From the UHGV virus genome UHGV-0310767: 64,000 bases of DNA; one strand, written 5' to 3'. The position numbers were made by a program, and so were the translations under genes. Position 1 is the first letter of the stretch, and every line of letters starts with the position of its first letter. This DNA comes from a virus. Positions 1-60,960 of this stretch are shown piece by piece. The notes below the pieces were generated by a model. It saw only the letters and a program-made list of their open reading frames with translations. It was not told where the DNA came from and ran no database searches.

Positions 1-3000
1 TAAATAGTAGTAATTTTCAGATTTTAGTTGCGGCAACATTGGATGCCGCTAATATACAAAAACAGTTAAACGCAATATCCAAAAAATATGGAACGATGAA
101 GATTAATTTAGATGTAGACAATACATCTTTAAATAATGCCACTAACTCATTAAATAATTATCAGCAAGGTTTAAAACAAACTAGTGAAGCGGCACAAAAT
201 ACATCTCAAAGCATTGGAGACATTATAGGTAAAGTAACCAAATTTGGGGGGGCTACTTTAATTATAAATAAATTTCGACAAGCAATTGTTGATGGATATG
301 GTGCAGTAAAAGAACTTGATGCTTCTGTAACAGAATATAGAAAAGTATCAGAACTTACAGATTCTCAAATGGGAGGTTTCATTGATACCGCCAGAGAATT
401 AGGTTTAACAGTGGCAAGAACAGCAGATGAAATGGTAGAAGCGGCTACAGAATTTAAAAAGATGGGTAATGATGATTCCACATCTTTACAGTTAGGTAGA
501 TTAGCTACTATGTTTCAGAATATTGCTGATGAAGCAATAAGTGCTGGTGATAGTGCTAGTTTTATTAACTCTCAGATGAAAGCATTTAATTTTACAGCTA
601 ATGAAGCTATTCATGTTTTGGATGCTGTTAATGAGGTAGCTAATAATTTTGCTGTTTCTTCTGGTGATATTTCTACAGCTTTACCCAAAGTTGCTAGTAC
701 AATGGCATTAGCTGGAAATAGTTTTGAGGAAACTATAGGATTACTTACGGCTGGTGCTGAAATAATTCCTAATCAGGCTTCCAGAATTGCTAGAGGTTTA
801 CGTTCTATCACTTTGAATCTTCAAGGTTTAAATGAGGATGGAGAGCAAGTTGCTGGAATGGCGGCTTCTATGCAGGAAGAATTTGATAAGTTAGGTATTT
901 CTTTGCTGGACAATCAGGGACAGATTAAAAGTACTTATCAGATTTTTAGCGAATTAGCAGAAATTTTCCCAAAATTAGATAAAAATACACAAACGTATTA
1001 TGCTAGTTTGATTGGCGGTAAAACTCAGGTAGACGTAGTAACAGCCATACTTAAAAACTTTGAAACTGCACTTAACGCTACAGATACAGCTATAAATTCT
1101 GTTGGTTCTGCCATGATAGAAAATGAGAAATATCTTGATTCTATTCAAGGTAAATTATCTGCTTTAAATTCTGAATTTGAGAAATTCTGGACAGAAGGAA
1201 TCAGTTCAGATATGGTAAAACAGATAGTTGAATTTGGAACAGGTGTTCTTAAATTAGTAAATGCTTTAGGTGGATTACCTACTATTCTTACAGCCGTAGT
1301 AGGAATTATAGCTACTTTAAAAGGCTATAACATAATAACTTCTTTAGGTAAAATGGGAAGTTCGTTAGCTAATGTTATAGGTTTAGTAGTTAGTTTAAGG
1401 AAAGATGGTTTTTCTTTAATTGAAATATTTACTGGCTTATCTTCTAGTGCTACATTAGCAAGTGTGGCTATTGGTGGAGTTGCGGCGGCCTTAACTATAG
1501 GTGTTGCGGCCTATTCTTATTATACTCAAGCACAAGCCAAAGCAAGAGAAGAAGCTTTAAAAGCCGCAGAAGATTTCGGCACAGAAGCCACTTCTTTAGC
1601 AGATTTACAGAAAAAGTATAATGAAATATGGACTTCTCAAGATGATGAAGAAACAAAAGCTACTAAATTAGCAGAAGTTAGAAAAACTTTAACTGACCAG
1701 TATGGGCTTGAAAAAGAACAATTGGATAAGTTAAATGAAAGTCGTGAAGCTGGAAATGCTTTATTAAACGAAGAAGCTTTTTCAAAAGCCGCAGAAGCTT
1801 ATGCAAAAAGTGTAGACGAAATACAGAAAGCACAAGAATATCTCCTTAATAATTCTATGCTTAATTATGGTGTAGATATAGGAAATAATTTAAGTGATGA
1901 AGTATTTGCTAAATTAGATAAAGCTTTTAAAGATGTATCTGAAAAAGCGCAAGGAATGATTGTAAATCTTAAAGGTACACCAGAAGAATTAGAAAAAGCT
2001 TTAGTAGAAGCTATCAATTATATGTCAGCTTTAGAGAATCCCACTCAAAATGAAATAAATTTATTAAATCGTTTTAAGAGTGATTTAAGAAGTTTATCGA
2101 AAGAAATTGATAGTTCTAATGAAGTTATAAGTAGAACACAGCAAGCTTATCTGCTTAATAACGATGCAGTTCAAACTTTCCTTAATTCCAGTTATCAAAC
2201 AAAGGAAGAAATGGAAGCGGCAAAACAAGTAGTGTTAGATAGTTTAACACCTCTTGATTCTTACCGTAAAGGTTTTGAAAATATTGTTAGTAGTGCGTTC
2301 CCAGAATGGAGCGAAAGTTCTAAAGAAAATGCAGAAGATTTAAGAGTTGAAATGAACAATGGTTCTGATGCCGCCGAGGAATATGCTAAAAAGATAAAAG
2401 AATTAGCAGGAAGTTTAAGTGAATGTCAAACTGCCTATGATACACTTACAGAGGTAGCAAAGGAATACAATGAAACTGGTAACTTAAATGTTGAAACTTT
2501 ATCGAAATTATTAAAGCTTAATCCAGAGTTTTACCAAGCTTTATCTATGCAAGAGGGAAAGCTGGTTGTCAATACTGAACTTCTTAACCAGATGGCTCAG
2601 GAGTACGCTACAAATGCGTACAGCGCAGTAACAGCGGCCCAAGGGGTTGATACCTTATCTACTTCGTTGGATGGAACTGCAACGGCAGGAATTGACGCTA
2701 CTCAGCGAATAACCGAAGCCGGGAACGCCGCTATAGAAGCAGGACAGAAAGCTTTAGAAGGTGCAAAAGGATTTAGGTCACTTATAGGAAGTATGGGGAC
2801 ATTTGTCAGTACTTTAAAAAGTGGTTTAACTGGTGATAATGGAGATGGAACAAAAGAGTATGGTCATGCTTTTGATGCTCAAGTTCAAGCTTATCAAAAG
2901 AAACAGCAAGATGATTTATTAGCCCATTTATTTGATGGGATTTCAATTGATACTAGTGGTGGAAAGAAAAAGGGTGGTGGCAAATCTGGTAAGGATAGTG

Positions 3001-4570: not shown

Positions 4571-4843
4571 ATGACAGGAAATTTTGATATAAATAAAGAA
4601 TTATTGGATGTAATGAGAATTATCGCAAGACAAGAAATAGAAAAATGTAATAGAGATATTACAAAAACTGCTAGAGTAATAGCGGTAAATACTGATAAAA
4701 CAGTTAAAATAGAAATGGATGGAAAACAATATGATAATATTCCTAATTATAATGGGACTACTTTAACAACTAATGATATTGTAAAAGTAACTTATCCTCA
4801 AGGACAGACAAGTAATATGTATATATCTGGGGGGGGCGTTTAA
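4571..4843 (+). CDS. Small tail-module protein (90 aa). Ends in GGGV, encoded by a G8 tract, and is possibly the N-terminal half of a protein fused with the next ORF.
   Basis: Good RBS (aaaggagtgagatatt ATG). ORF ends at the G8 tract 4829-4836. Confidence 0.5.
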   Translation: MTGNFDINKELLDVMRIIARQEIEKCNRDITKTARVIAVNTDKTVKIEMDGKQYDNIPNYNGTTLTTNDIVKVTYPQGQTSNMYISGGGV

Positions 4844-6264: not shown

Positions 6265-7018
6265 TTTCGTAGGTTACAACTTCGTACAAGATAGTAACGC
6301 CCTCGACCCATCACCTAGTAGTGTAAATAACATAACTAGCATTCAGTTACAGAATGGTATTTACGATTATTTTCATTTGACCAATAATGTAACAGCCGAA
6401 TATTCTCCTATTGAGCCTTTAGAATGGGCTTATTTGGATATTATCAATGCTAATTTTAATGGTAATATCAATGGTGGTAACGTTGAGTTCTTATTGGATT
6501 ATTTGACAGCTATCAAAGTAAAGAGAAGAATAAAAGGAACTTTCAACTGGGTAACTTTGAAAACAGTTCCAGTTAAAACATTTGATGATTTAAACTTCGT
6601 GTTTAGGGATTATCTTAACGGAAATTTTGTGGATTATGAGTATGCTTTGGTTCCAATTCTAAATGGGGCCGAAGGAGATTATATAACCAATAGTATTACC
6701 AGCCAATTTGCAGGAGTGTTCTTATGTGATAAGGATACTATATACAAATATTATGCTGGTGTTTCTTATGGTAGTGCAAAACGTGTGAAAAAAGTAGGAG
6801 TATTTGAAGCTTTTGGTAGTCAGTATCCTATTGTAGTATCAAACGCTTTAACGAATTATCATTCTGGTAGTGTAAGCGGAACGATTCTTCCTAAAGATTA
6901 TGATGAAACTAGAGCCTTGAATAGAATGGCAATTGTACAACAGGGTAAAGAATTAATTGACTTTATTACAAATAATAAAGCAAAAATTCTAAAAGACTTA
7001 ACATTATGTGTTGCATAA
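6248..7018 (+). CDS. Baseplate/tail structural protein (256 aa). Possibly exon 1 of an intron-interrupted gene.
   Basis: Overlapping start with the upstream gene (translational coupling). Followed by a 310-nt structured non-coding region, an endonuclease ORF, and a short in-frame-looking coding segment at 8205..8370. Confidence 0.5.
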   Translation: MERMFSFVGYNFVQDSNALDPSPSSVNNITSIQLQNGIYDYFHLTNNVTAEYSPIEPLEWAYLDIINANFNGNINGGNVEFLLDYLTAIKVKRRIKGTFNWVTLKTVPVKTFDDLNFVFRDYLNGNFVDYEYALVPILNGAEGDYITNSITSQFAGVFLCDKDTIYKYYAGVSYGSAKRVKKVGVFEAFGSQYPIVVSNALTNYHSGSVSGTILPKDYDETRALNRMAIVQQGKELIDFITNNKAKILKDLTLCVA

Positions 7019-7331
7019 TATAGGTCGCTTTCATAGTGATATGAAAGAAAAATAATATATTGAATTGCTGGAAACCCCTAAAGCCGCATGAACCACAACG
7101 TAAGTATGAAATAAGACTAAGCGTGATGGTGACGAAAGTAGAAAGAATCATGTGGATGGCATAAGGTTAAATCCTAAGTGCTAATATAAAATGGGCAATC
7201 AGCCGCCAAGCCTTGAATAGAGGAAGGTTCAACGACTATCCCGTAAGGGAGTACACTGCAAGCGATTGGCAGTGGAAGTGGTATACGTCTTATAATCTTG
7301 ACCAATACTATAAAAAGAAGGAGGTGAAAAA

Positions 7332-8093
7332 ATGGTGATAGATAATCAAATGGTTGAAATGAAATGGCATCCAAGAAATAAACAATATTATACAGATTTG
7401 GGTTATATCTACACGAAAATAGGTGATAAATTTGAAGTGAAAGTAGAACATTTAACTAAAGGAGCAAAATCTTTAGTAGATGTTCGTTGTGATTATTGTG
7501 GGAAAATAATTAAAGTAAAATACCAAAATTATATAAATAGATATAGTCCCACATTAAAAGATGCTTGCACTCAGTGTAAAACTAAGAAAGCTATAGATTC
7601 TAATTTAAATAGATATGGAGTTTCAAATGTTTTTGAATTAGAAGATATAAAAAGCAAAAGTAAAAATACATTTTTGGAGAAATATGGAGTAGACCATTAT
7701 TCTAAGTCTACTGATTTTAAAAATGTAGTTCCTAACAAAATAAGAAAAACTTTGTATAGAAATGGTACAGTTCCTACTTCCAGTCAACAATTAAATATAT
7801 ATGATTTGTTGAAAACTAAATATAAAGAATGTTTCATTAATTATCCTTGTGGTTCATGCTCTTTAGGTTGTTTAGTGAAGGAAAAAGGTGTATCTATTGA
7901 TATAGAATATGATGGCAATTATTGGCATCAAGATAAACAAAAAGATAGAAAAAGAGATGAATTTATTAAGTCTCAAGGTTATAAAATATTAAGAATAAAA
8001 AGTGATAGAAATATTCCCACTTTAAAACAGTTAGTAAAAGCTATTAATTGTTTGGTCAAGAGCAATCATAGCTATAAGGAAATAAGATTATAA
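7332..8093 (+). CDS. Putative homing endonuclease, either free-standing or intron-encoded. N-terminal CxxC...CxxC zinc ribbon plus a C-terminal nuclease-like domain (IEYDGNYWH ... RDEFIKSQGYKILRI).
   Basis: Two Cys pairs (CDYCG, CTQCK). The C-terminal motif resembles Vsr/PD-(D/E)XK-type homing endonucleases. Inserted into the structural module between coding segments. Strong RBS aagaaggaggtgaaaaa ATG. Confidence 0.4.
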   Translation: MVIDNQMVEMKWHPRNKQYYTDLGYIYTKIGDKFEVKVEHLTKGAKSLVDVRCDYCGKIIKVKYQNYINRYSPTLKDACTQCKTKKAIDSNLNRYGVSNVFELEDIKSKSKNTFLEKYGVDHYSKSTDFKNVVPNKIRKTLYRNGTVPTSSQQLNIYDLLKTKYKECFINYPCGSCSLGCLVKEKGVSIDIEYDGNYWHQDKQKDRKRDEFIKSQGYKILRIKSDRNIPTLKQLVKAINCLVKSNHSYKEIRL

Positions 8094-9815: not shown

Positions 9816-10562
9816 ATGAGTGTATTATATCCATCACTTTCTAATACAACGTTTCCAAATACTATTCAAAGTTTTGTAACTTTCTTGAATATTACTCCTA
9901 CTGATGCTTCACTGATTCAAAAATATCAGCTTGCGGTACAGTCAGGAAATATGGAAGAAGCAGAAAATATATTTGGACAAATACAGAATGGTAATCAGAA
10001 AATTATTGATGCTACTAAATTAAATACTTTGGTAGACACTACAGTTGCATTGGAAAACTTTTTTAAAACAGATGTATTTCCTTACATTGATGTTAAGCAG
10101 AATGAATGGCAGAATATTATCAATCTGTTTAATTATAAAGGAGTTTACAGCCCTGTTACTACCTATGTTAAAAATAATTTTGTAACTTTTACTTATAATG
10201 GTGTAGAATATGTATATATTGCTACTGCAAATCCACCTGTAGGAGCAGACCCTACTAATGCCGCTTATTGGAGAAATCTTTCTATTCGTGGTGAAAAGGG
10301 AGACCCAGGAGTAGGAATGTCATTCCTTTATGCATGGGATTCTACGGTTCATTATTCTGTACAAAATGTAGTAACTTATGGTAACTATGTATGGGGTGCG
10401 ACCAAAGAGAATCAGAATCAGGCCCCTTTTGAGGATTCAGAGTATTGGTCTAACATAGGTACGATTAGACCCCGTGTAATCCCTATTACGAGTTCTTACC
10501 CGGCTTTACAGGAGACAGGAGACTTATGGTTCCGCATTTTGACTGATGGGGGGGGTATATAA
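9816..10562 (+). CDS. Tail structural protein (248 aa). The C-terminal GGG is encoded by an in-frame G8 tract.
   Basis: RBS aaggaggtaagaa ATG. G8 at 10548-10555, just before the stop. Confidence 0.45.
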   Translation: MSVLYPSLSNTTFPNTIQSFVTFLNITPTDASLIQKYQLAVQSGNMEEAENIFGQIQNGNQKIIDATKLNTLVDTTVALENFFKTDVFPYIDVKQNEWQNIINLFNYKGVYSPVTTYVKNNFVTFTYNGVEYVYIATANPPVGADPTNAAYWRNLSIRGEKGDPGVGMSFLYAWDSTVHYSVQNVVTYGNYVWGATKENQNQAPFEDSEYWSNIGTIRPRVIPITSSYPALQETGDLWFRILTDGGGI

Positions 10563-14264: not shown

Positions 14265-15133
14265 ATGAGTGTGTTAAACAGATTCCCAACTGGGGGGGCA
14301 GTAATGATGGTTTGACAGCCACCCCAGGAGAAGTTTTAAGTGGTTACAAATTCGTAGGGGCCAGTACAGACGATGTTCAAGTGGGTACTTTACAACTTAC
14401 TGGTAATGCCGCAACGAACCATGTACTTAGTGGTACTACGTTTTATACAAACAACCCCAAGAATAAGCTTACTGGTTATATGGCAATCAATAACATCAGA
14501 GGATTTTCTGTAAGTCTTATAAGTGGCAGAAATGTAACGGTTCAATGGACTAATCCTGTACAAACTGCTGGATATCCTTACAGTGGGGTATATGTAAAAT
14601 ACCAAACAGGTTCCTATCCCACTCCTTCCACTGGTACACAGGCGTACAAGGGAGTAGGAAGCAGTGGGGCAAGTGGGGCCGCTTCTACTGTTTTCAGAAA
14701 TGGTGTAGTTTTATGTAGTGCAGATGGTGGTAAATCCAATACCAGTAAAACTTATGATGGTGGCTCTGGCGGCTCTGGTGGCGGCGGTGGTGGTCAGAGA
14801 GATGGTAATATTCCTGGACAATGGGGTGGTTCTAATGGTGCTGGTGGAGGTAGTGTAGCGGCTAGTGGTAGTGGCGGTAGAGGTCAAGGATTTACTACTA
14901 CTGCTTTTAGAGAAAACTGGGGAACTGTTTACTCAGGTGGTGGCGGCGGTGCTGGTGCTAATACTGGCTCTGGTGGCGGTGGAAACGCTGGCGGTGGAGG
15001 TGGTGGAGGCGCTTATGGTGGTGGCGGCTGGGGTTCAGCTAATACAGGTGGTGGGGGAGGTGGTCAATACTGGCCCAACGGAACCAACGGTGGAAATGGA
15101 GGTTCTGGTGTAATATTGATAAGAATAAAATAA
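14265..15133 (+). CDS. Glycine-rich tail-fibre paralog 1. The conserved N-terminus MSVLNRFPTGG is followed by a G7 tract (14292-14298) that puts the body (tracked as ORF 14312..15133) out of frame; G8 would restore it.
   Basis: ATG at 14265 with RBS aaaggaaaatagtttt. The N-terminal peptide matches the paralogs at 17631 and 48467. The body is homologous to 15174, 17631 and 47324 and ends in the family C-terminus GSGVILIRIK. Confidence 0.65.
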
Positions 15134-17630: not shown

Positions 17631-18866
17631 ATGAGTATATTAAACCACTTCCCTACTGGGGGGGGCATAAGTGATACACTAACGGCTACGCCAGAGGATG
17701 TAATGAAAGGGTTTAAATTTGTAGGTTTGCTTCAAGATGATGTGGAAATTGGCACTTTAGAACTTACAGGAAACGCTTTAATTAATCACGTTACAAAAGA
17801 CAAGACATTTTATACTACTAATCCCAAACAAATAATGACAGGAATTATGGAAGTTAATAATGCTAGTAATCTTGTGCTAAGTTTGGCTAGTGGACGTAAC
17901 GTAATAATAAAATGGACTAATCCCAAAGTGACTACAGGCAGACCTTATAGTGGCGTTTATGTTCGTTATCAGACAGGAAGTTATCCAACGCCAACTACAG
18001 GTACACAAGGGTACAAAGGGGTAGGGAGTACTTCTTCGGCTGGTAGCGTATCTCAGGTCACTTTGGCTTTACCTAACCTTAATACCACTTATTACTTCAT
18101 TGTTTACTCTTATTGCACTACCAGTAATGGAGAATTAATTGGCTCTCAATTAAAAGGTACTATAAAAACAGGAAATACTCAAACAATTACCATAAAAAGT
18201 AATCAAAATTACACTGTGCCAGCAGGATATAAAACAGCAGACATATTTTGTGTTGGTGGTGGTGGAGGTAATTATTCCAGTTCTAAATATTATAGTGGAG
18301 GTGGTGCTGGGGGAGGATATACTAAAACTGTTAGCAATATAGGCATTTCTTCTGGTCAAGTACTAAGTTGTACAATAGGAGGAAGTGGTGGGGCAACTTC
18401 GGTTTCTCGTAGTGGAACAGTACTTTGTATTGCTAATGGAGGGAAACAAAGTTCTGCTGGTACTGCTAGTGTAGGTGGTTCTGGTGGTGGCGGTTATACA
18501 GATAATTCAAGATACAATGGAGGAAATGGTGGTAGTAATGGAGGTGGTGGTTCAAGTTCTGGTGCTGGTGCTGGTGCTTTAGGACAGGGAACAACCACAA
18601 GAGCATTTGGTGAAAGTTCTGGTGCTTTATACTCAGGAGGGGGTGGCGGCGGTGCCTACTACTCTAGTTCATCTTCTGGTGGTGCAGGAGGTGCAGGAGG
18701 CGGTGGTGCTGGTGGAAGAAGAAGTAGCCGTCCAGGACAAAATGGGGCCGCTAACACAGGTGGGGGTGCAGGAGGTGGATTTCAAAGTAATACTTCTAAT
18801 CCTTCTGAAAATCCTGATAACAGTAGCCAAGGAGGAAGCGGTATTATTTTAATTAGATTAAAGTAA
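17631..18866 (+). CDS. Glycine-rich tail-fibre paralog 3. In frame, with a G8 tract (17658-17665) encoding the conserved FPTGGG.
   Basis: 411 aa. N-terminus MSILNHFPTGGGISDTLTATPEDVMKGFKF. Ends in GSGIILIRLK. Closest to the minus-strand copy at 47324..48467. Confidence 0.7.
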   Translation: MSILNHFPTGGGISDTLTATPEDVMKGFKFVGLLQDDVEIGTLELTGNALINHVTKDKTFYTTNPKQIMTGIMEVNNASNLVLSLASGRNVIIKWTNPKVTTGRPYSGVYVRYQTGSYPTPTTGTQGYKGVGSTSSAGSVSQVTLALPNLNTTYYFIVYSYCTTSNGELIGSQLKGTIKTGNTQTITIKSNQNYTVPAGYKTADIFCVGGGGGNYSSSKYYSGGGAGGGYTKTVSNIGISSGQVLSCTIGGSGGATSVSRSGTVLCIANGGKQSSAGTASVGGSGGGGYTDNSRYNGGNGGSNGGGGSSSGAGAGALGQGTTTRAFGESSGALYSGGGGGGAYYSSSSSGGAGGAGGGGAGGRRSSRPGQNGAANTGGGAGGGFQSNTSNPSENPDNSSQGGSGIILIRLK

Positions 18867-18905: not shown

Positions 18906-19763
18906 ATGGCAATACTTAATCGTTTTCCTACTGGGGGGAGGCTTATCTTCTGAGGTCACAGCAACTAACAATCAGCTTTTAACAGGGTATACAGCTATAA
19001 CGGCTAACTCTGATGATGAACCAATTGAAGGAACTATGCCTAATTGTGGTACACAGAATTATAGTTTACCTATAAATGGAAGTTATACTATCCCAGAAGG
19101 TTATCATTCTGGCGAAGGTAAGGTAACTCAATCTGTTACTACTATGAAGAGTTCTAATATAACACCTAATACATCTGTAGTAACAATTCCCACCAATCAG
19201 AAATATATTGATGGGAATTTTACTATTCCTGCATTTGCTTTACCATCTGCTTCTATTTTGAAAAAAAAGGAGCAACATATACTTTATATGGAAAAAAGGT
19301 TACAGGAGAATTTGAGGGCTTCGTTCCTAGTGTTACAGATTTATATTACAAAGGAAATAATATAGCTAATTTCAGTTTTAAGGTGGCATATGGATATTCT
19401 GTACTAGGCTCTGTTAAATTTGAAACTGCTCAAATGATAACTACATCAGATAGAAATGGAACTGCTGGCCCTTTATGTAGTGGAAGAAGTTATAATTTAA
19501 CTCCTTATAATTCAATTAATATTGAAGTAAATCCTCCAACTCCATCTATTTCTTTATCTACAGTTTATAGGGGTGTAGTATTTCATTATGGGAGTGATTT
19601 AAATACAAGAGATGCATTTATAAATTCAACAAAACCATCAACTTATGTATTTAGTTTTGATATATCAGGAATAAATGCAACTAAATGGTTTGCGTTTATG
19701 TTTTTTTATAAAGAAAATACTAGTGCCTATAAAGGAATTATAAATCGTATTTGGTTCAGTTAA
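18906..19763 (+). CDS. Tail-fibre-like protein 4. It has the same FPTGG N-terminal leader and a different, non-Gly-rich body. It is currently broken into three ORFs by a G6 tract (18933-18938) and an A8 tract (19261-19268).
   Basis: ATG 18906 with RBS gaaagggaataatt. The frame reconnects to ORF 19036..19365 with G5 or G8. ORF 19036..19365 reconnects to 19383..19763 with A9, giving a plausible continuous sequence ...ILKKKGATYTLYGKKVTGEFEGF... Confidence 0.5.
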
Positions 19764-20716: not shown

Positions 20717-20903
20717 ATGGTAACTATGAATAAGTGGGGGGGCAAATGGTACTGCCGAAGCAGAATTTTGCGGTTTAAGTACTGACAATAAACCCGTAGA
20801 CGAAGGAATTCCTAATGGTTCATCATTTTTTGAGATGGATACATTTAAGGTATATTTCTTTAATAAAATGACAAAAACATGGATAACTGAGGGAGGTGTT
20901 TAA
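20717..20903 (+). CDS. Small protein downstream of the lysin. A G7 tract at 20736-20742 gives a 22-aa truncation; G6 (or G9) would give a 62-aa protein (..ANGTAEAEFCGLSTDNKPVDEGIPNGSSFFEMDTFKVYFFNKMTKTWITEGGV).
   Basis: Strong RBS ggaggtaaaaaat ATG. The alternative frame is open to 20903 and abuts the next gene. Confidence 0.35.
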
Positions 20904-47323: not shown

Positions 47324-48467
47324 TTATTTTAATCTTATTAAAACAACACCTGAACCTCCTGTAGAAATATATCCTTGATAATTTCCACCAGCACCACCGC
47401 CCGTATTAGTTCCTCCGTTACCAGCTTGCCAACTGCCATTAGAACCTCCACCGCCGCCCCCGGCACCGCCGCCACCAGGGCTTCCTCCACTTCTTCCAAA
47501 ACCACCACCACCACCACCGCCTGAATATATAGTTCCATTAGATTCCCCAAACGCTCTTGTAGTAGAACCTTGACCTAGGCCACCACCACCAGAACCACCT
47601 TGTCTACCTGCTGAATTAAATCTAGGGTTTCCATCTCCACCATTAGCACTACATAATGTACTACTTCCTTTTTTTACAGTGGTAGTTCCTCCTTTATTAC
47701 CTCCATATCCACCTCCACCAATAGTTATAGATAACACATCTTTTTCAGCTACAGTTATATTATTAACAGTTTTGGTATATCCTGCACCGCCACCACCATT
47801 AGCATAATAACTAGAATCCCCATATTCACTACCACCACCTCCGCCAACACAGAAAACATCTATTTTAGAATATCCTGCTGGAATTGTGTAATTAGAAGTT
47901 GCTTTGATAGTAATTATCTGAGAACTACCTGTATTTACTGTAGCTTTTAATTGTGTTCCTAAGATTTCCCCATTGGATGTTACACAATAAGAGTAAACAA
48001 TGAAGTAATACATAGTATCAAGAGAAGGAAGGGATAAAGCTGTTGTAGATATCCCTCCACTCTCTTGTGATGTTCCTACTCCCTTGTACCCTTCTATACC
48101 TGTATCTGGTGTAGGATAGGAACCTGTTTGATATCGGATATATACTCCACTATAAGGTCTACCTAGTTCTTCAATAGGATTAGTCCATTGGACTGTAATA
48201 TTTCTACCACTAGAAACAGACAAAATTAAATTGCTTACATTTCCTGGCTCTAGGGTGCCTGTTAGTGAATTTTTGGGGTCTACAGTGTAAAACGTAGTAC
48301 CTTTGGTTACATGGTTTTTTACAGCATCACCTGTCAACTGTAAGGAACCAGTCTCTACATCGTCTGTACTGGCCCCTACGAATTTGTAACCATCCATAAC
48401 AACGGATGAATCGGCTGTCAAGCTATCAGGTATGCCCCCCAGTTGGGAAGCGGTTTAGTATTGGCAT
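47324..48467 (-). CDS. Glycine-rich tail-fibre paralog 5 on the minus strand inside the replication module. Its N-terminus MPILNRFPTGG is followed by a G6 tract (+ strand C6 at 48435-48440) that places the body (ORF 47324..48421) out of frame; G8 would restore it.
   Basis: ATG at 48467 with RBS (aaaggagattaag ATG). About 70-75% nucleotide similarity to 17631..18866, including the identical 26-mer tattacttcattgtttactcttattg. Ends in GSGVVLIRLK. Confidence 0.6.
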
Positions 48468-51039: not shown

Positions 51040-51686
51040 TTCTTTATTTCTTTTATTGGCTTCTTTTTTGTGATTTTTACTATTCTATCACCTTCTTCCA
51101 TAGTATTTACCATTTTTTGGATTTCTTGTTTTTCATAATAAAATTTCTTAGCTTCTTCATAATATCGAGGAAAGATTTGGCCTAAGCCATAATCTGGATT
51201 CCAAGAATTTTGTAAAGTTTCAAACCAATATTGAAGGGTTAAAACCATTCCTGTCCATTTAAAATTATACTTGTCATGGTACATTCCTGCCTGTCTTTGA
51301 ATGGAAGGATAATCACATTGTTTTACAGTAATATCAAAGTAAACATAATCTAAAAATGTTTCTTCCCAATAAGCTTCACTGCCTTTATATTTACTTTCAT
51401 ATTCTTGTTCTGAACAATAATAATATCTTTCTTTTACGGCAAAAGCTTTCTCTCTTGCAATTCTTTTACCGCAACAGCGGCAAGTTACTATGCCATCTGC
51501 CGCTGTGCTATTAATTTTTCTTCCTTTATTAGTTTGAAGTTCATTATTATAACAATCTTCATTGCAGTAATAACTTCTAGGTTTTGTAGGATGCGGAAAA
51601 GCCTGTATCTTATTTATTTTTTCTCCACAATACTTACATTTTACCTGTATCCCTTTTGATTGTTTAGGATTTAAATTATCTGCCAA
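51024..51686 (-). CDS. Cys-rich zinc-finger protein (220 aa).
   Basis: Repeated CxxC pairs (KCKYCGEK...C..C ; CRCCGKR...C). Confidence 0.4.
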   Translation of the reverse strand: MADNLNPKQSKGIQVKCKYCGEKINKIQAFPHPTKPRSYYCNEDCYNNELQTNKGRKINSTAADGIVTCRCCGKRIAREKAFAVKERYYYCSEQEYESKYKGSEAYWEETFLDYVYFDITVKQCDYPSIQRQAGMYHDKYNFKWTGMVLTLQYWFETLQNSWNPDYGLGQIFPRYYEEAKKFYYEKQEIQKMVNTMEEGDRIVKITKKKPIKEIKKWEDL

Positions 51687-51739
51687 CTTTCCACCTCCTT
51701 AATAATTATTATATCATTTCATTTATCTTTTGTCAATAT

Positions 51740-51970
51740 AAAGTTAATGGATTCTTATAAGAACTAAACCAGTTCCACCACTACCTCCCATTCCTTCGGC
51801 TCTACCACCACTGGATGAAGTACGAGAGCCGCCACCGCCCCCACCTCCACCGCCGCCTGTGTTAGCCGCGCCAGCAGTTCCAGAAGAAGCCCCACTACCA
51901 CTACTTCCTGTACCACCTCTACCGCCACCGCCAGAGCCACCGGTTGACCAGTATAGCTTTTATATGACGG
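51740..51970 (-). pseudogene. Remnant of a glycine-rich tail-fibre paralog: C-terminal fragment only, frameshifted.
   Basis: The minus strand encodes ...WSTGGSGGGGRGGTGSSGSGASSGTAGAANTGGGGGGGGGSRTSSSGGRAEGMGGSGGTGLVLIRIH*, matching the family C-terminus (GSGVILIRIK). An upstream stop and frame change mean no intact N-terminal domain. Confidence 0.6.
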
Positions 51971-52141
51971 TGAACTTCCAGCATTGAAGTCAAATCCGAT
52001 TATTGAAGGAACCCTCATGTTCCACACTACTTTACAGCAGTATTCTCCTTATACCAGGTACAGAGGGTGACTTAATCAGGAATTTTCAACTTCTGCCCAG
52101 CATAGATGATAGTACCCTTGATGCCGTTCAGGTTGGCAATC

Positions 52142-53526
52142 TCAGGCCAGCGCTTTCTGTTTCAAAGCAGTAACCTTGTTCTTTGTCGGTATCATTTGCG
52201 AAAACACCTTCATAAGAACTTGTTTTACAATACTGTTACCAGCTTGCTTATAGAGTTGGGTGTTGCTGTTCACAGAAGCAGCTTTCCAGTAATCTTCATC
52301 TGTGAAACCCATCAACCTCCAACACTCAAGTGGTGTCAGCTTACGAATACGAATGAGATACAATTCTCCGTTAATCTCATAGATGAATTTGTGAAACTGC
52401 TCTGGAATTTCGTTTGCAAGTCTGCTTTCTAACAGAAAGTTATCCTTCTGTACAGTAGTTATAGTGTTGCAAACACCATCTAATCTAGGTTCGGCTTCTC
52501 TGTGTTCGTTATAGCCGTGGTGTACTTCTCCGGCTTCATACGCTTTTCTAAGACGTTTTCCTTTTCTTGTAGAACTTGAACCACAGTTTGATGTTAGAGT
52601 GGTCATTGTTTTCTGGTCTCTATGAAACCCAATTCTCTTACATTCAATGGCTGCATTGCTACCGTAGTTGCTGAGTCCCTTGTAATCTCTGGACAAGAGT
52701 GTGGCTGCAACATCTGTTTGTCTTGCATCAGGTGTTCTGGCTTCATCGGAACTTCCGCAGTTACGCAAGATGATACCATCCCCCCCTGTTCAAGGAACGG
52801 AACTATCTTCCCAGAGAATACCAGCTTATCAACAAGGTCTTTGGCTTTTTCGGATGTAAGATAGTATTTGTCCTCAACCTGAGGTTCAAGGAAATCAGCC
52901 ATAACAGTTGTGAGAGGTTCAATCTCCGGGAAAATGAACTCATAATCCCCTAAAATGCTTACTGCAATACAGCGATTTCTTGATTGGGGTATTCCATAGT
53001 TCATTGCGTTAAGGTCTTGCCAGAAAGTCTTATATCCTCTTGACTCAAGGTAATTAAGCCAGTTTTCAAAGTCTGGCATATTCTTCTTAGAGTGAACTTG
53101 AGGAACATTTTCCATAACCAGAACTTGCGGTAATTGCTCAGTTTCGTTAAGCAAACGCTCAACTTCCCACAAAAGACCAGAGCGTGTACCACTGTCTTTT
53201 CTCATACCTTTTCCCTTGCCAGCCACAGACAAATCTTGACAAGGAAAAGAATATATAAGCAAGTAAGTATAACGGTCTGTGTCAACAATACCAAGGTCTG
53301 CCCCTGATATTTTTGTAATATCCATCGTTGGAAAGTTGGTTCCATGAATTGCGTTGTAGCTTGCAACCGGGTACTTATCGAACTCAACCACACGGTAGTG
53401 TTCAAAATCTACCCCTATGTCACGCAATGCCATAGCTTGACTACCTACACCTGCGAACAGTTCAATAAGTCGAATAGGCTTATCAATCTCATATTTCATT
53501 AGTGCATCCTCCTCCTTCTTCCTCAC
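52142..53526 (-). CDS. DNA (cytosine-5)-methyltransferase, split into two overlapping ORFs by a G7 tract (+ strand C7 at 52780-52786). G6 (or G9) gives a full-length enzyme.
   Basis: N-terminal ORF: LFAGVGS (motif I), PCQDLSVAG (motif IV), ENV (VI), QSRNRCIAV (VIII). C-terminal ORF: TLLSRDYKG (TLTAR-like) and LYKQAGNSIV (motif X). The frames join as ...FLEQGGDGIILRNCGSS with one G fewer. Confidence 0.75.
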
Positions 53527-53693
53527 ACCCCATAAAGGGGTGTGATTTTAGATTTTGAAAGCGGGACGCACACCGGCAGAGAGAGAAGCGGTTTAGTACT
53601 GCCATAATTTAACCAATTCCTTTCTTTATTTTTTTGATTGACAAGTTACATTTTATAAAAATAATCCCTCCACCAAACGGCAGAGAGATTAAT

Positions 53694-54032
53694 CTATCTC
53701 AACACGATTGGAGATATAACATCAGGCGCAAATTCATCAAAGAAAGTGACTCCAATTATTTTGATATGCTCACAAGTTTTAAGAACTAAAACATCGTCAT
53801 AAGCATCCAAATAATATTTGAATTTTTCTTCCATGTTTTCTGCCATATTAATTATAATCTCAGGTTTTTTTAATCTATCGTCTTTTATAATAACAGCAAT
53901 AAACTTATAATCATTTTCCATTGCTATTAAAAAATAATTGACGAAAGATTCTCGGCTAATGTATGGATTAGCTACATTACTTTTTTTCTTTGGTTTTGGT
54001 TTACGATAAGGATAATAACCACTTACTCCCAT
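53694..54032 (-). CDS. Hypothetical protein (112 aa)
   Basis: ORF only. Confidence 0.3.
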   Translation of the reverse strand: MGVSGYYPYRKPKPKKKSNVANPYISRESFVNYFLIAMENDYKFIAVIIKDDRLKKPEIIINMAENMEEKFKYYLDAYDDVLVLKTCEHIKIIGVTFFDEFAPDVISPIVLR

Positions 54033-60676: not shown

Positions 60677-60960
60677 TTATATATCAACAATTATTTTAAA
60701 ACCTATTATGCCATTCTCTACATAATAAGGAATAATAGAATTATACTCTGTGGTACATATTACCCTTAACATACATTCGGCATAATCTTTACCTGTCATA
60801 TCACAAATTCTTCCTTTGTATAAAGTTTCACCCCCCCACATACATTAAGATGAAGCCCTCTTGTGTCTAAATTAGATGAATAACTTTTGTTCTTGTGAAT
60901 AAAGACATAAGTATTACTATCTAATTTATTTAATATATCCACTAAAAATATACTTTCCAT
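60677..60960 (-). CDS. Small protein gene containing a G7 tract (+ strand C7 at 60831-60837). The current frame stops after 57 aa; G8 gives a 94-aa protein (...HLNVCGGGETLYKGRICDMTGKDYAECMLRVICTTEY...).
   Basis: ATG at 60960 with RBS aaagaaaggaaaattt ATG. The alternative frame is open to 60677. Confidence 0.4.

Follow-up and report, generated by a model that had tools for sequence, protein, structure and literature searches.

A polyG tract as the probable on/off switch of a modular C5 cytosine methyltransferase in an Enterocloster-type gut phage

The 64,000-nucleotide (nt) stretch of virus genome UHGV-0310767 analysed here (the window) encodes on its minus strand a C5 cytosine methyltransferase, whose reading frame is broken by a run of seven G residues (G7) where the catalytic domain meets the first target recognition domain (TRD). 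We consider it probable, at roughly 70%, that this run is a hypermutable homopolymer giving rise to heritable ON (G8) and OFF (G7 and G9) variants of an orphan, probably anti-restriction, enzyme. This reading builds on the anatomy of the gene and the logic of its frames, on the occurrence of G7, G8 and G9 tracts on near-identical DNA, on the recurrence of the frame states across allelic lineages and two phage backbones, and on the membership of the tract in a genome-wide set of similar runs, all of which can be read directly from the sequences compared.

Two overlapping minus-strand open reading frames (ORFs) border the tract, one running from 53526 or 53499 to 52603 and the other from 52768 to 52142. 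The likely start of the gene is the ATG at 53499 rather than the GTG at 53526, because this ATG is preceded by the Shine-Dalgarno-like GGAGGAGGA and because two database proteins, P0001 (the exact 452-aa protein obtained with G8; aa, amino acids) and P0009 (identical to the product of the upstream ORF as sequenced), begin with MKYEID. The elements of the gene that bear on its frame are:

53507..53515, minus strand: Shine-Dalgarno-like GGAGGAGGA, 7 nt 5' of the ATG at 53499 (read from the sequence)
52603..53499, minus strand: ORF A as sequenced, 298 aa, with motifs I-VIII and 59 out-of-frame codons, stop at 52603-52605 (ORF scan and rebuilt translation)
52780..52786, minus strand: G7 homopolymer (C7 on the plus strand) at the junction of catalytic domain and first TRD (sequence; G7, G8 and G9 in relatives)
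52142..52780, minus strand: downstream frame reached with G8, from DGIILRNCGSS... to motif X, containing TRD-A, a TRD-D fragment, TRD-E and motifs IX and X, stop at 52142-52144 (rebuilt translation)

The G count at 52780-52786 is exactly seven, and the run codes for the Gly-Gly of ...FLEQGG. When the gene was rebuilt in silico with tract lengths from G4 to G10, a full-length ORF resulted from G5 (451 aa) or G8 (452 aa), while G4, G7 and G10 yielded products of 297-299 aa and G6 and G9 truncations of 245 and 246 aa. The tract lengths that restore the frame are hence G5, G8 or G11, and the G6 or G9 proposed for this purpose in the initial annotation give the 245/246-aa truncations instead. As in contingency loci generally, the length of a homopolymer inside the ORF sets the reading frame. 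The same annotation was right that a C5 methyltransferase is split by the G7 run, as the two ORFs at 52780-52786 join into a complete enzyme of the PF00145 family, and right that the gene is OFF as sequenced, being frameshifted, 298 aa long and out of frame in its final 59 residues. The window allele is accordingly predicted to yield only a 298-aa product that lacks the TRDs and motifs IX-X.

With the frame repaired to G8, the protein matches Pfam PF00145 with 193 bits (cut-off 22; E 1.1e-56) over residues 10-436, which cover profile positions 2-322 of 324, and its nearest solved structures are M.MpeI and M.HhaI. Motifs I, IV, VI, VIII, IX and X occur in canonical order and are invariant across an alignment of 44 sequences; with G7, motifs IX and X fall out of frame. 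The initial annotation had located motifs I, IV, VI, VIII and X correctly, but the TLLSRDYKG that it placed between VIII and X is the core of a TRD rather than motif IX, the true motif IX being RKLTPLECWRLMGF. The motifs and modules lie as follows:

53440..53457, minus strand: motif I, FAGVGS, S-adenosylmethionine binding (motif location; invariant columns in alignment A1)
53236..53247, minus strand: motif IV, FPCQ, with the catalytic Cys (motif location; alignment)
53095..53112, minus strand: motif VI, ENVPQV (motif location; alignment)
52972..52986, minus strand: motif VIII, QSRNR (motif location; alignment)
52676..52702, minus strand: TRD-A core, TLLSRDYKG (module recurs in relatives)
52556..52618, minus strand: TRD-D fragment, DQKTMTTLTSNCGSSSTRKGK, a remnant of deletions relative to long forms such as L030 (comparison with relatives)
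52427..52555, minus strand: TRD-E, RLRKAYEAGEVHH...DGVCNTITTVQKDNFLLE (comparison with relatives)
52304..52345, minus strand: motif IX, RKLTPLECWRLMGF (motif location; alignment)
52229..52246, minus strand: motif X, QAGNSI (motif location; alignment)

In relatives at 75-90% identity the stretch from motif VIII to motif IX is longer and accommodates as many as six TRD-like modules (A-F); the window allele is a deletion derivative of this arrangement that keeps module A, a fragment of D, and E. The gene is probably a phage-borne orphan C5 methyltransferase of the modular, multi-TRD type known from SPbeta and SPR, with an anti-restriction-type role, and its modules suggest that the window enzyme may be multispecific.

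The phage that carries it is a close relative of a cultured one. Bases 1-25000 of the window are 96% identical to Enterocloster phage PMBT24 over 74% of their length in a megablast comparison, and about 90% identical to five other phages of Enterocloster bolteae, while the replication region of the window is 98% identical to PMBT24. The latter is a 100-kb virulent siphovirus of E. bolteae (PMC11035940). Against this background the tract differs among relatives (their loci are given as L numbers). The protein P0001 is encoded on three to four contigs from other samples, with 99.4-99.9% identity to the window; L003, compared along its 4,795 nt, departs from the window by three mismatches and a sole indel, which is this one G. 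Among the DNA sequences, eight samples have G8, and exact-flank scans of viral contigs and of metagenome contigs returned one locus each, both with G8. G7 is present in two separate assemblies of the window lineage, both 100% identical to the window, in L056 (on the same phage backbone, in a P0005-type allele different from that of the window) and in L029/L030, where the methyltransferase cassette sits on another, unrelated phage backbone. G9 is found in L053-L055, pig-gut metagenomes among them, and interrupted tracts are seen in L023-L028 (G3AG6AG6) and L046 (G4AG3). In five lineages the in-frame protein has a shifted counterpart (P0001/P0009, P0005/P0262, P0003/P0263, P0002/P0017 and P0008/P0036), and therefore the frameshift arose repeatedly; at least four allelic lineages and two phage backbones include both forms. 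Length polymorphism thus exists on near-identical DNA and is not limited to multiples of three, a further property of contingency loci.

The methyltransferase tract also belongs to a wider set. The window, with 32% G+C, contains ten G/C runs of at least six residues, every one of which reads as G on the sense strand (binomial P 0.002), a bias that holds although gene orientation flips at about 23 kb. The eight runs of at least seven G amount to 11 overlapping matches against 1.89 expected, a number reached in none of 100 dinucleotide-preserving shuffles, so that G repeats are over-represented relative to base composition, as is characteristic of contingency loci. GGG makes up only 10% of the Gly codons; GGGGGG is used five times among in-frame Gly-Gly pairs against 2.4 expected, an excess too weak as stand-alone evidence. 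The other nine runs are:

246-252, plus strand: control tract inside the tape-measure ORF, length invariant
4829-4836, plus strand: control tract at the extreme 3' end of a conserved ORF, length invariant in the stricter count
10548-10555, plus strand: control tract at the extreme 3' end of a conserved ORF, length invariant in the stricter count
14292..14298, plus strand: G7, OFF, after MSVLNRFPT in a Gly_rich_2 paralogue; G5, G7, G8 or G9 in relatives
17658..17665, plus strand: G8, ON, after MSILNHFPT in a Gly_rich_2 paralogue; G8 or G9 in relatives
18933..18938, plus strand: G6, OFF, after MAILNRFPT; G6, G7 or G9 in relatives and G10 in PMBT24
20736..20742, plus strand: G7, OFF, nine codons into an ORF of the 64-aa type that starts MVTMNKWGG
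48435..48440, minus strand: G6, OFF, after MPILNRFPT in a Gly_rich_2 paralogue; G7 in L017
60831..60837, minus strand: G7, OFF, early in a small ORF

Six tracts, which lie at the beginning of accessory genes or inside the methyltransferase gene, differ in length in 19 of 27 observations and range from G5 to G9 among near-identical contigs. The three control tracts (G7 or G8; at 246, 4829 and 10548) kept their length in 20 of 20 observations of the stricter count, from which one relative with GGGGAGGG at 10548 was left out. This difference argues against sequencing or assembly error, as such an artefact would be blind to gene function. Furthermore, in a pair of assemblies that otherwise agree over 15,948 nt, the single difference falls at one of the sister polyG tracts, just past which one of the contigs ends, and this suggests heterogeneity within a sample. 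Taken with the methyltransferase gene, these runs probably form a group of about ten slippery on/off switches in the virus family.

Among the individual tracts, the one at 60831 is G5 in three loci of relatives from two samples (L001 and L002, probably separate assemblies of a single sample, and L017), where it yields a 93-aa ORF; with the G7 of the window a stop follows after 55 aa. By a hand codon count the ORF at 20736 would be ON at G6 or G9, and its 64-aa product is called as a gene in L032. Only the tract at 17658 is in frame among the four Gly_rich_2 tracts of the window (14292, 17658, 18933 and 48435). Paralogues of this family (PF21722) start with M-x-[ILV]-L-N-[RH]-F-P-T straight into the polyG run, which is followed by ...LTAT...; near-identical phages have runs between G5 and G10 here, and gene callers choose internal starts for the OFF copies. 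Further copies lie at 4456 in L005, L009 and L012 and in PMBT24 (L052 16887; L057 3421 and 8036). In cultured PMBT24, polyG runs occupy homologous places and two of them are out of frame by our own reading, with the genes annotated from internal starts; a term search of the PMBT24 genome paper turned up neither homopolymers nor frameshifts. The two 3'-end control tracts end their ORFs as ...ISGGGV* and ...LTDGGGI*, directly ahead of the next gene. All three controls are invariant in 5-9 related samples, and they may serve the downstream gene in a Shine-Dalgarno-like manner.

Several points weigh against the switch reading, and many of them feed an alternative which we regard as unlikely, namely that G7 is a dead allele, arisen by plain loss of function or by a consensus or sequencing error in a dispensable, decaying gene, whose tract is mutable and under no selection for switching. 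The locus is indeed dispensable, since relatives carry either a Gly_rich_2 gene or nothing there. The TRD region of the predicted G8 enzyme derives by deletion from that of longer relatives, so that TRD-D is truncated and TRD-E is missing the ALRMVRTEEG with which it starts in the long forms; many other in-frame deletions are found in this region among near-identical phages, with proteins of 387-455 aa, and the cassette may therefore be decaying. In the AlphaFold model of the repaired enzyme the catalytic domain is confident and the TRD region (residues 247-350) has a predicted local distance difference test score below 50, so that the model does not settle the soundness of the G8 enzyme. All of the evidence comes from consensus sequences, whose differences between samples prove mutability and not a high switching rate, and independence is lacking for several samples: ERZ28598665 and SRR14017548 seem to be the same sample, and JGI 3300045988 corresponds to the source of the window. 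Runs of at least seven A or T vary too, in 17 of 132 observations, and coding constraint accounts for part of the G run, as the Gly-Gly at the junction is conserved in relatives. Yet G7 recurs in two separate assemblies of the window lineage, the shifted and in-frame states reappear in the manner of a two-way hot spot in the lineages and backbones listed above, and the control tracts of equal length do not vary. Moreover, in relatives at 75-80% identity (such as L048 and L049) the G run is kept rather than being replaced by GGT or GGA, despite the rarity of GGG.

Two further explanations would make the G7 gene functional. Under recoding, which we judge highly improbable, a -1 ribosomal slip or the addition of one G by RNA polymerase would yield the G8 protein (EQGGDGIIL...), and G7 would signify low expression and not OFF. 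As read from the sequence, the G7 run does lie in phase as a perfect X_XXY_YYZ heptamer, CA-G_GGG_GGG-ATG, but the tract is G7, G8, G9 or interrupted in different alleles, unlike programmed frameshift sites with their conserved length, and most alleles are simply in frame. Nor is there a structure downstream of the heptamer, where the 90 nt fold no better than shuffled sequences (z = +0.91; 166 of 200 shuffles at least as good). Still less credible to us is a two-subunit enzyme in the manner of M.AquI, in which ORF A (motifs I-VIII) would assemble with a restarted ORF B (TRDs and motifs IX-X) such that activity survives the frameshift. Split C5 methyltransferases such as M.AquI and fragment complementation, as for M.BspRI and M.SssI, are established; long-form relatives are organized as two cistrons, with an ORF1 of about 300 aa and an ORF2 that starts MPKIEIIG or MSK... 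behind a purine-rich Shine-Dalgarno-like stretch (read from the alignment), and many database clusters hold ORF1 only. In the window, however, the start region of ORF2 is deleted, and ORF B consequently has no ATG with a Shine-Dalgarno element. Only two candidate starts remain: the TTG at 52768, for which the one Shine-Dalgarno-like element is the G run lying 11 nt upstream, and the ATG at 52606, which is not preceded by any such element and would miss TRD-A.

The switch reading would then run as follows. A 1.6-kb cassette would have been acquired by a PMBT24-like phage of E. bolteae, after which slippage during phage DNA replication, presumably at a high and reversible frequency, would add or remove a G at the junction of the catalytic domain and the first TRD. 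Lineages with G8 would make one 452-aa enzyme, which we infer to be active, and would be ON; those with G7 or G9 would make products of 298 or 246 aa without TRD and motifs IX-X and would be OFF. A plausible use is bet-hedging between Type II restriction, which is blocked by 5-methylcytosine (5mC), and methyl-dependent Type IV restriction, which is triggered by it, and switching may thus be beneficial. The likening of this system to a phasevarion finds no support, the closest cultured relative PMBT24 being virulent and the enzyme an orphan of the SPbeta-style anti-restriction type.

In the long forms (L030, L046, L048, L049, L053 and L054) the junctions between TRDs carry two or three polyG tracts: the second (tract 2), after ...SPTIPTCAGG, is G6, G8, G9 or G11 across contigs, and tract 3, after ...ECE[IL]GG, is G8, each contig showing a different mix of in-frame and out-of-frame tracts. 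The frame reached after losing one G at tract 1 is open over all of TRD-A in five of five sequences tested (P 0.01-0.03 per sequence by synonymous resampling), three of which are 20-25% diverged from the window allele at the protein level by tblastn. This minus-one-G frame enters a different TRD, GTGKHQSNTVY..SPTITA in most and MPKIEIIG..SPTIPTCAGG in L048. We tentatively entertain, as a possibility that is rather doubtful at present, that the long-form tracts are module selectors in a multi-TRD methyltransferase and not simple on/off switches. In that case a slip by one base would swap or remove recognition modules, so that one gene would produce combinatorial methylation specificities, and the window allele would be a deletion derivative that has collapsed to plain ON/OFF, where G7 simply truncates the protein as the second module is deleted. 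The single-chain enzyme of Dulem virus 39 carries similar modules in cis and without polyG. In Streptococcus phage Javan179 (L050; MK448694.1 12603-13881) the homologous methyltransferase is annotated as two coding sequences, with the frame change close to an A7 run, of which the TRD region has three; it may be an A-tract counterpart or a pseudogene. An intron or intein splitting the gene, an idea prompted by the relatives of about 300 aa and a 280-nt gap in tblastn, was rejected, since the gap codes for TRD modules in other frames; at the gathering threshold Rfam found nothing in L030, L046, L048, L049 or the window.

To our knowledge, polyG phase variation has not been reported for Enterocloster, and no homopolymer switches have been described in SPbeta-type methyltransferase genes. 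The nearest precedents come from other phages. PolyG switches are known in Campylobacter Fletchervirus (Sorensen et al. 2021, Cell Rep 35:109214, as cited in PMC12823448 and bioRxiv 10.1101/2025.10.21.683753). According to these citing texts, Fletchervirus likewise has a low-GC genome with several polyG tracts in genes (G7-G11), and length changes there switch genes on and off and make phage subpopulations, while here switching is deduced from metagenome consensus sequences. Some of the Fletchervirus tracts lie in putative host-recognition genes, for which the Gly_rich_2 paralogues beside the baseplate genes are the counterpart here. Unlike Fletchervirus, the present phages have a Firmicute host (Enterocloster), and one of their tracts lies in a DNA methyltransferase gene. 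The methylase gene of Bordetella phage BPP-1 also has a polyG tract (Liu et al. 2004, J Bacteriol, as cited in bioRxiv 10.1101/2025.10.21.683753). The two cases share a polyG run in a phage-encoded DNA methylase gene, a comparison drawn through the citing text. They are unlike in enzyme class and in type of phage, and the Bordetella case consists of a single tract in one phage. The BPP-1 methylase tract is reportedly a frameshift hot spot. The core of the idea of a switchable phage methyltransferase in the initial annotation is supported by the comparative G7, G8 and G9 alleles, whereas its rarity is not, given the precedents in Campylobacter phages and BPP-1.

Contingency loci have also been claimed for coliphages T2 and T4 (Gomez, Barrick and Waters, bioRxiv 2025.10.21.683753). 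In that work, homopolymer runs of at least six in phage ORFs undergo reversible frameshifts that are read as bet-hedging against host defence; the putative loci were obtained there by a scan for any homopolymer of at least six, whereas here an AT-rich genome shows a strong excess of G runs, every one of them on the sense strand, with a concentration at the 5' ends of one paralogous family. In bacteria, phase-variable methyltransferases are classic, as in the Type III mod phasevarions and the Type IIG enzyme cj0031 of C. jejuni (PMC4889913). These share with the present gene a simple-sequence repeat in the methyltransferase ORF, but they are chromosomal, with regulatory or restriction roles, and the gene described here codes for an orphan Type II-like C5 enzyme on a phage, with no regulon implied. 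For the enzyme itself the models are the multispecific C5 methyltransferases of the Bacillus phages SPbeta, SPR, phi3T and rho11s (Trautner et al. 1996, EMBO J 15:1434, as cited in PMC12707154). They are similarly phage-borne, with no cognate endonuclease nearby and with tandem TRD modules between motifs VIII and IX; identity to the SPbeta-type enzymes is only about 29%, and multispecificity here is suggested by the sequence modules alone. The novelty of the present case lies in its phage group, that of gut Firmicutes, in a C5 enzyme with multiple TRDs and, possibly, in the module-selector design of the relatives.

If the switch reading is correct, it would extend phage homopolymer contingency loci from Campylobacter and T-even phages to abundant phages of gut Firmicutes. 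Since cultured representatives are available (PMBT24 and the CB457/CB473 phages on E. bolteae), switching rates and effects on host range should be directly measurable. With a switchable anti-restriction methyltransferase, one phage stock would contain both methylated and unmethylated genomes, a hedge between Type II and methyl-dependent restriction that would be relevant to host-range prediction and phage-therapy design. The module-selector design, if true, would represent a new way of diversifying methylation specificity. Annotation pipelines take polyG genes as broken or call them from internal starts, and phage pangenomes therefore under-count such genes; the PMBT24 record, for instance, lists two polyG-led genes as shorter 'hypothetical proteins'.

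As for the wider setting of the gene, the window is identical to the 106-kb ENA contig ERZ27304110:k141_83189, and the phage backbone has SPbeta YorF/YorH families; a cluster member named Enterocloster phage CB457P1 and the megablast match to PMBT24 point to the host. A DNA search of the GenBank phages returned only distant matches for the methyltransferase gene, in Dulem virus 39 and Streptococcus Javan prophages, and detected the cassette in none of the cultured Enterocloster phages. A contig scan for host prophages recovered only methyltransferases of 35-40% identity, in a Tissierella metagenome-assembled genome and in Clostridium nitritogenes, which is uninformative on the host. The locus is flanked by a 112-aa gene and a YorH-family gene, and is occupied in relatives by this methyltransferase, by a 445-aa polyG-led Gly_rich_2 gene or by nothing. 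The latter gene has G7, G8 or G9 on identical flanks in relatives, and in the window it survives as two remnants:

53585..53605, minus strand: start remnant of the displaced Gly_rich_2 gene, ATGGCAGTACTAAACCGCTTC = MAVLNRF, 21 nt (alignment)
51946..53584, minus strand: methyltransferase cassette, 1.64 kb, which replaced codons 8-379 of the polyG-led Gly_rich_2 gene (alignment)
51744..51945, minus strand: 3' remnant of the displaced Gly_rich_2 gene, about 200 nt (alignment)

The start remnant ends a few bases before the polyG position of relatives, and the 3' remnant sits in a 336-nt stretch that is 100% identical to L005 (L005 5565-5900 = window 51945-51610). Positions 52145-53590 of the window, which overlap the upstream boundary of the cassette by a few bases, are 93-97% identical to the same gene in the unrelated backbone of L023, a type that carries a DEAD helicase and ERF. 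The site of the swap is apparent on comparing window 51686-54032 with L005, L008, L009, L012 and PMBT24 (L057), and one JGI sample (3300045988) holds two related phage strains with different occupants. Directly past the methyltransferase stop, another frame at 52070-52141 (minus strand) reads IANLNGIKGTIIYAGQKLKIPD*, which resembles the end of a LysM domain; as it is absent from the L023-type cassette, it is probably a fragment brought from an earlier context of the cassette. At the other end, a perfect hairpin, CACACCCC-TTTA-TGGGGTGTG, lies at 53524-53544 (minus strand), 9 nt upstream of the methyltransferase ribosome-binding site. It falls within the mobile cassette and is not followed by a T run, and an operator, an RNA stability element or a relic of insertion are candidates for its nature.

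Away from the methyltransferase, a gene of the baseplate module, which is a single ORF of 308-309 aa in PMBT24 and several relatives, is split in the window by an intron-like match and an endonuclease-like ORF. The former, at 6995-7323 (plus strand), is a sub-threshold Rfam match to group I introns (RF00028, 36.4 bits, E 3e-7), and the latter, following it at 7332-8093 (plus strand), codes for 253 aa resembling DUF7487/DUF559. In the same stretch an Alicyclobacillus phage gives a short megablast match, as does an ORF of an Aeromonas phage labelled 'putative intron'.

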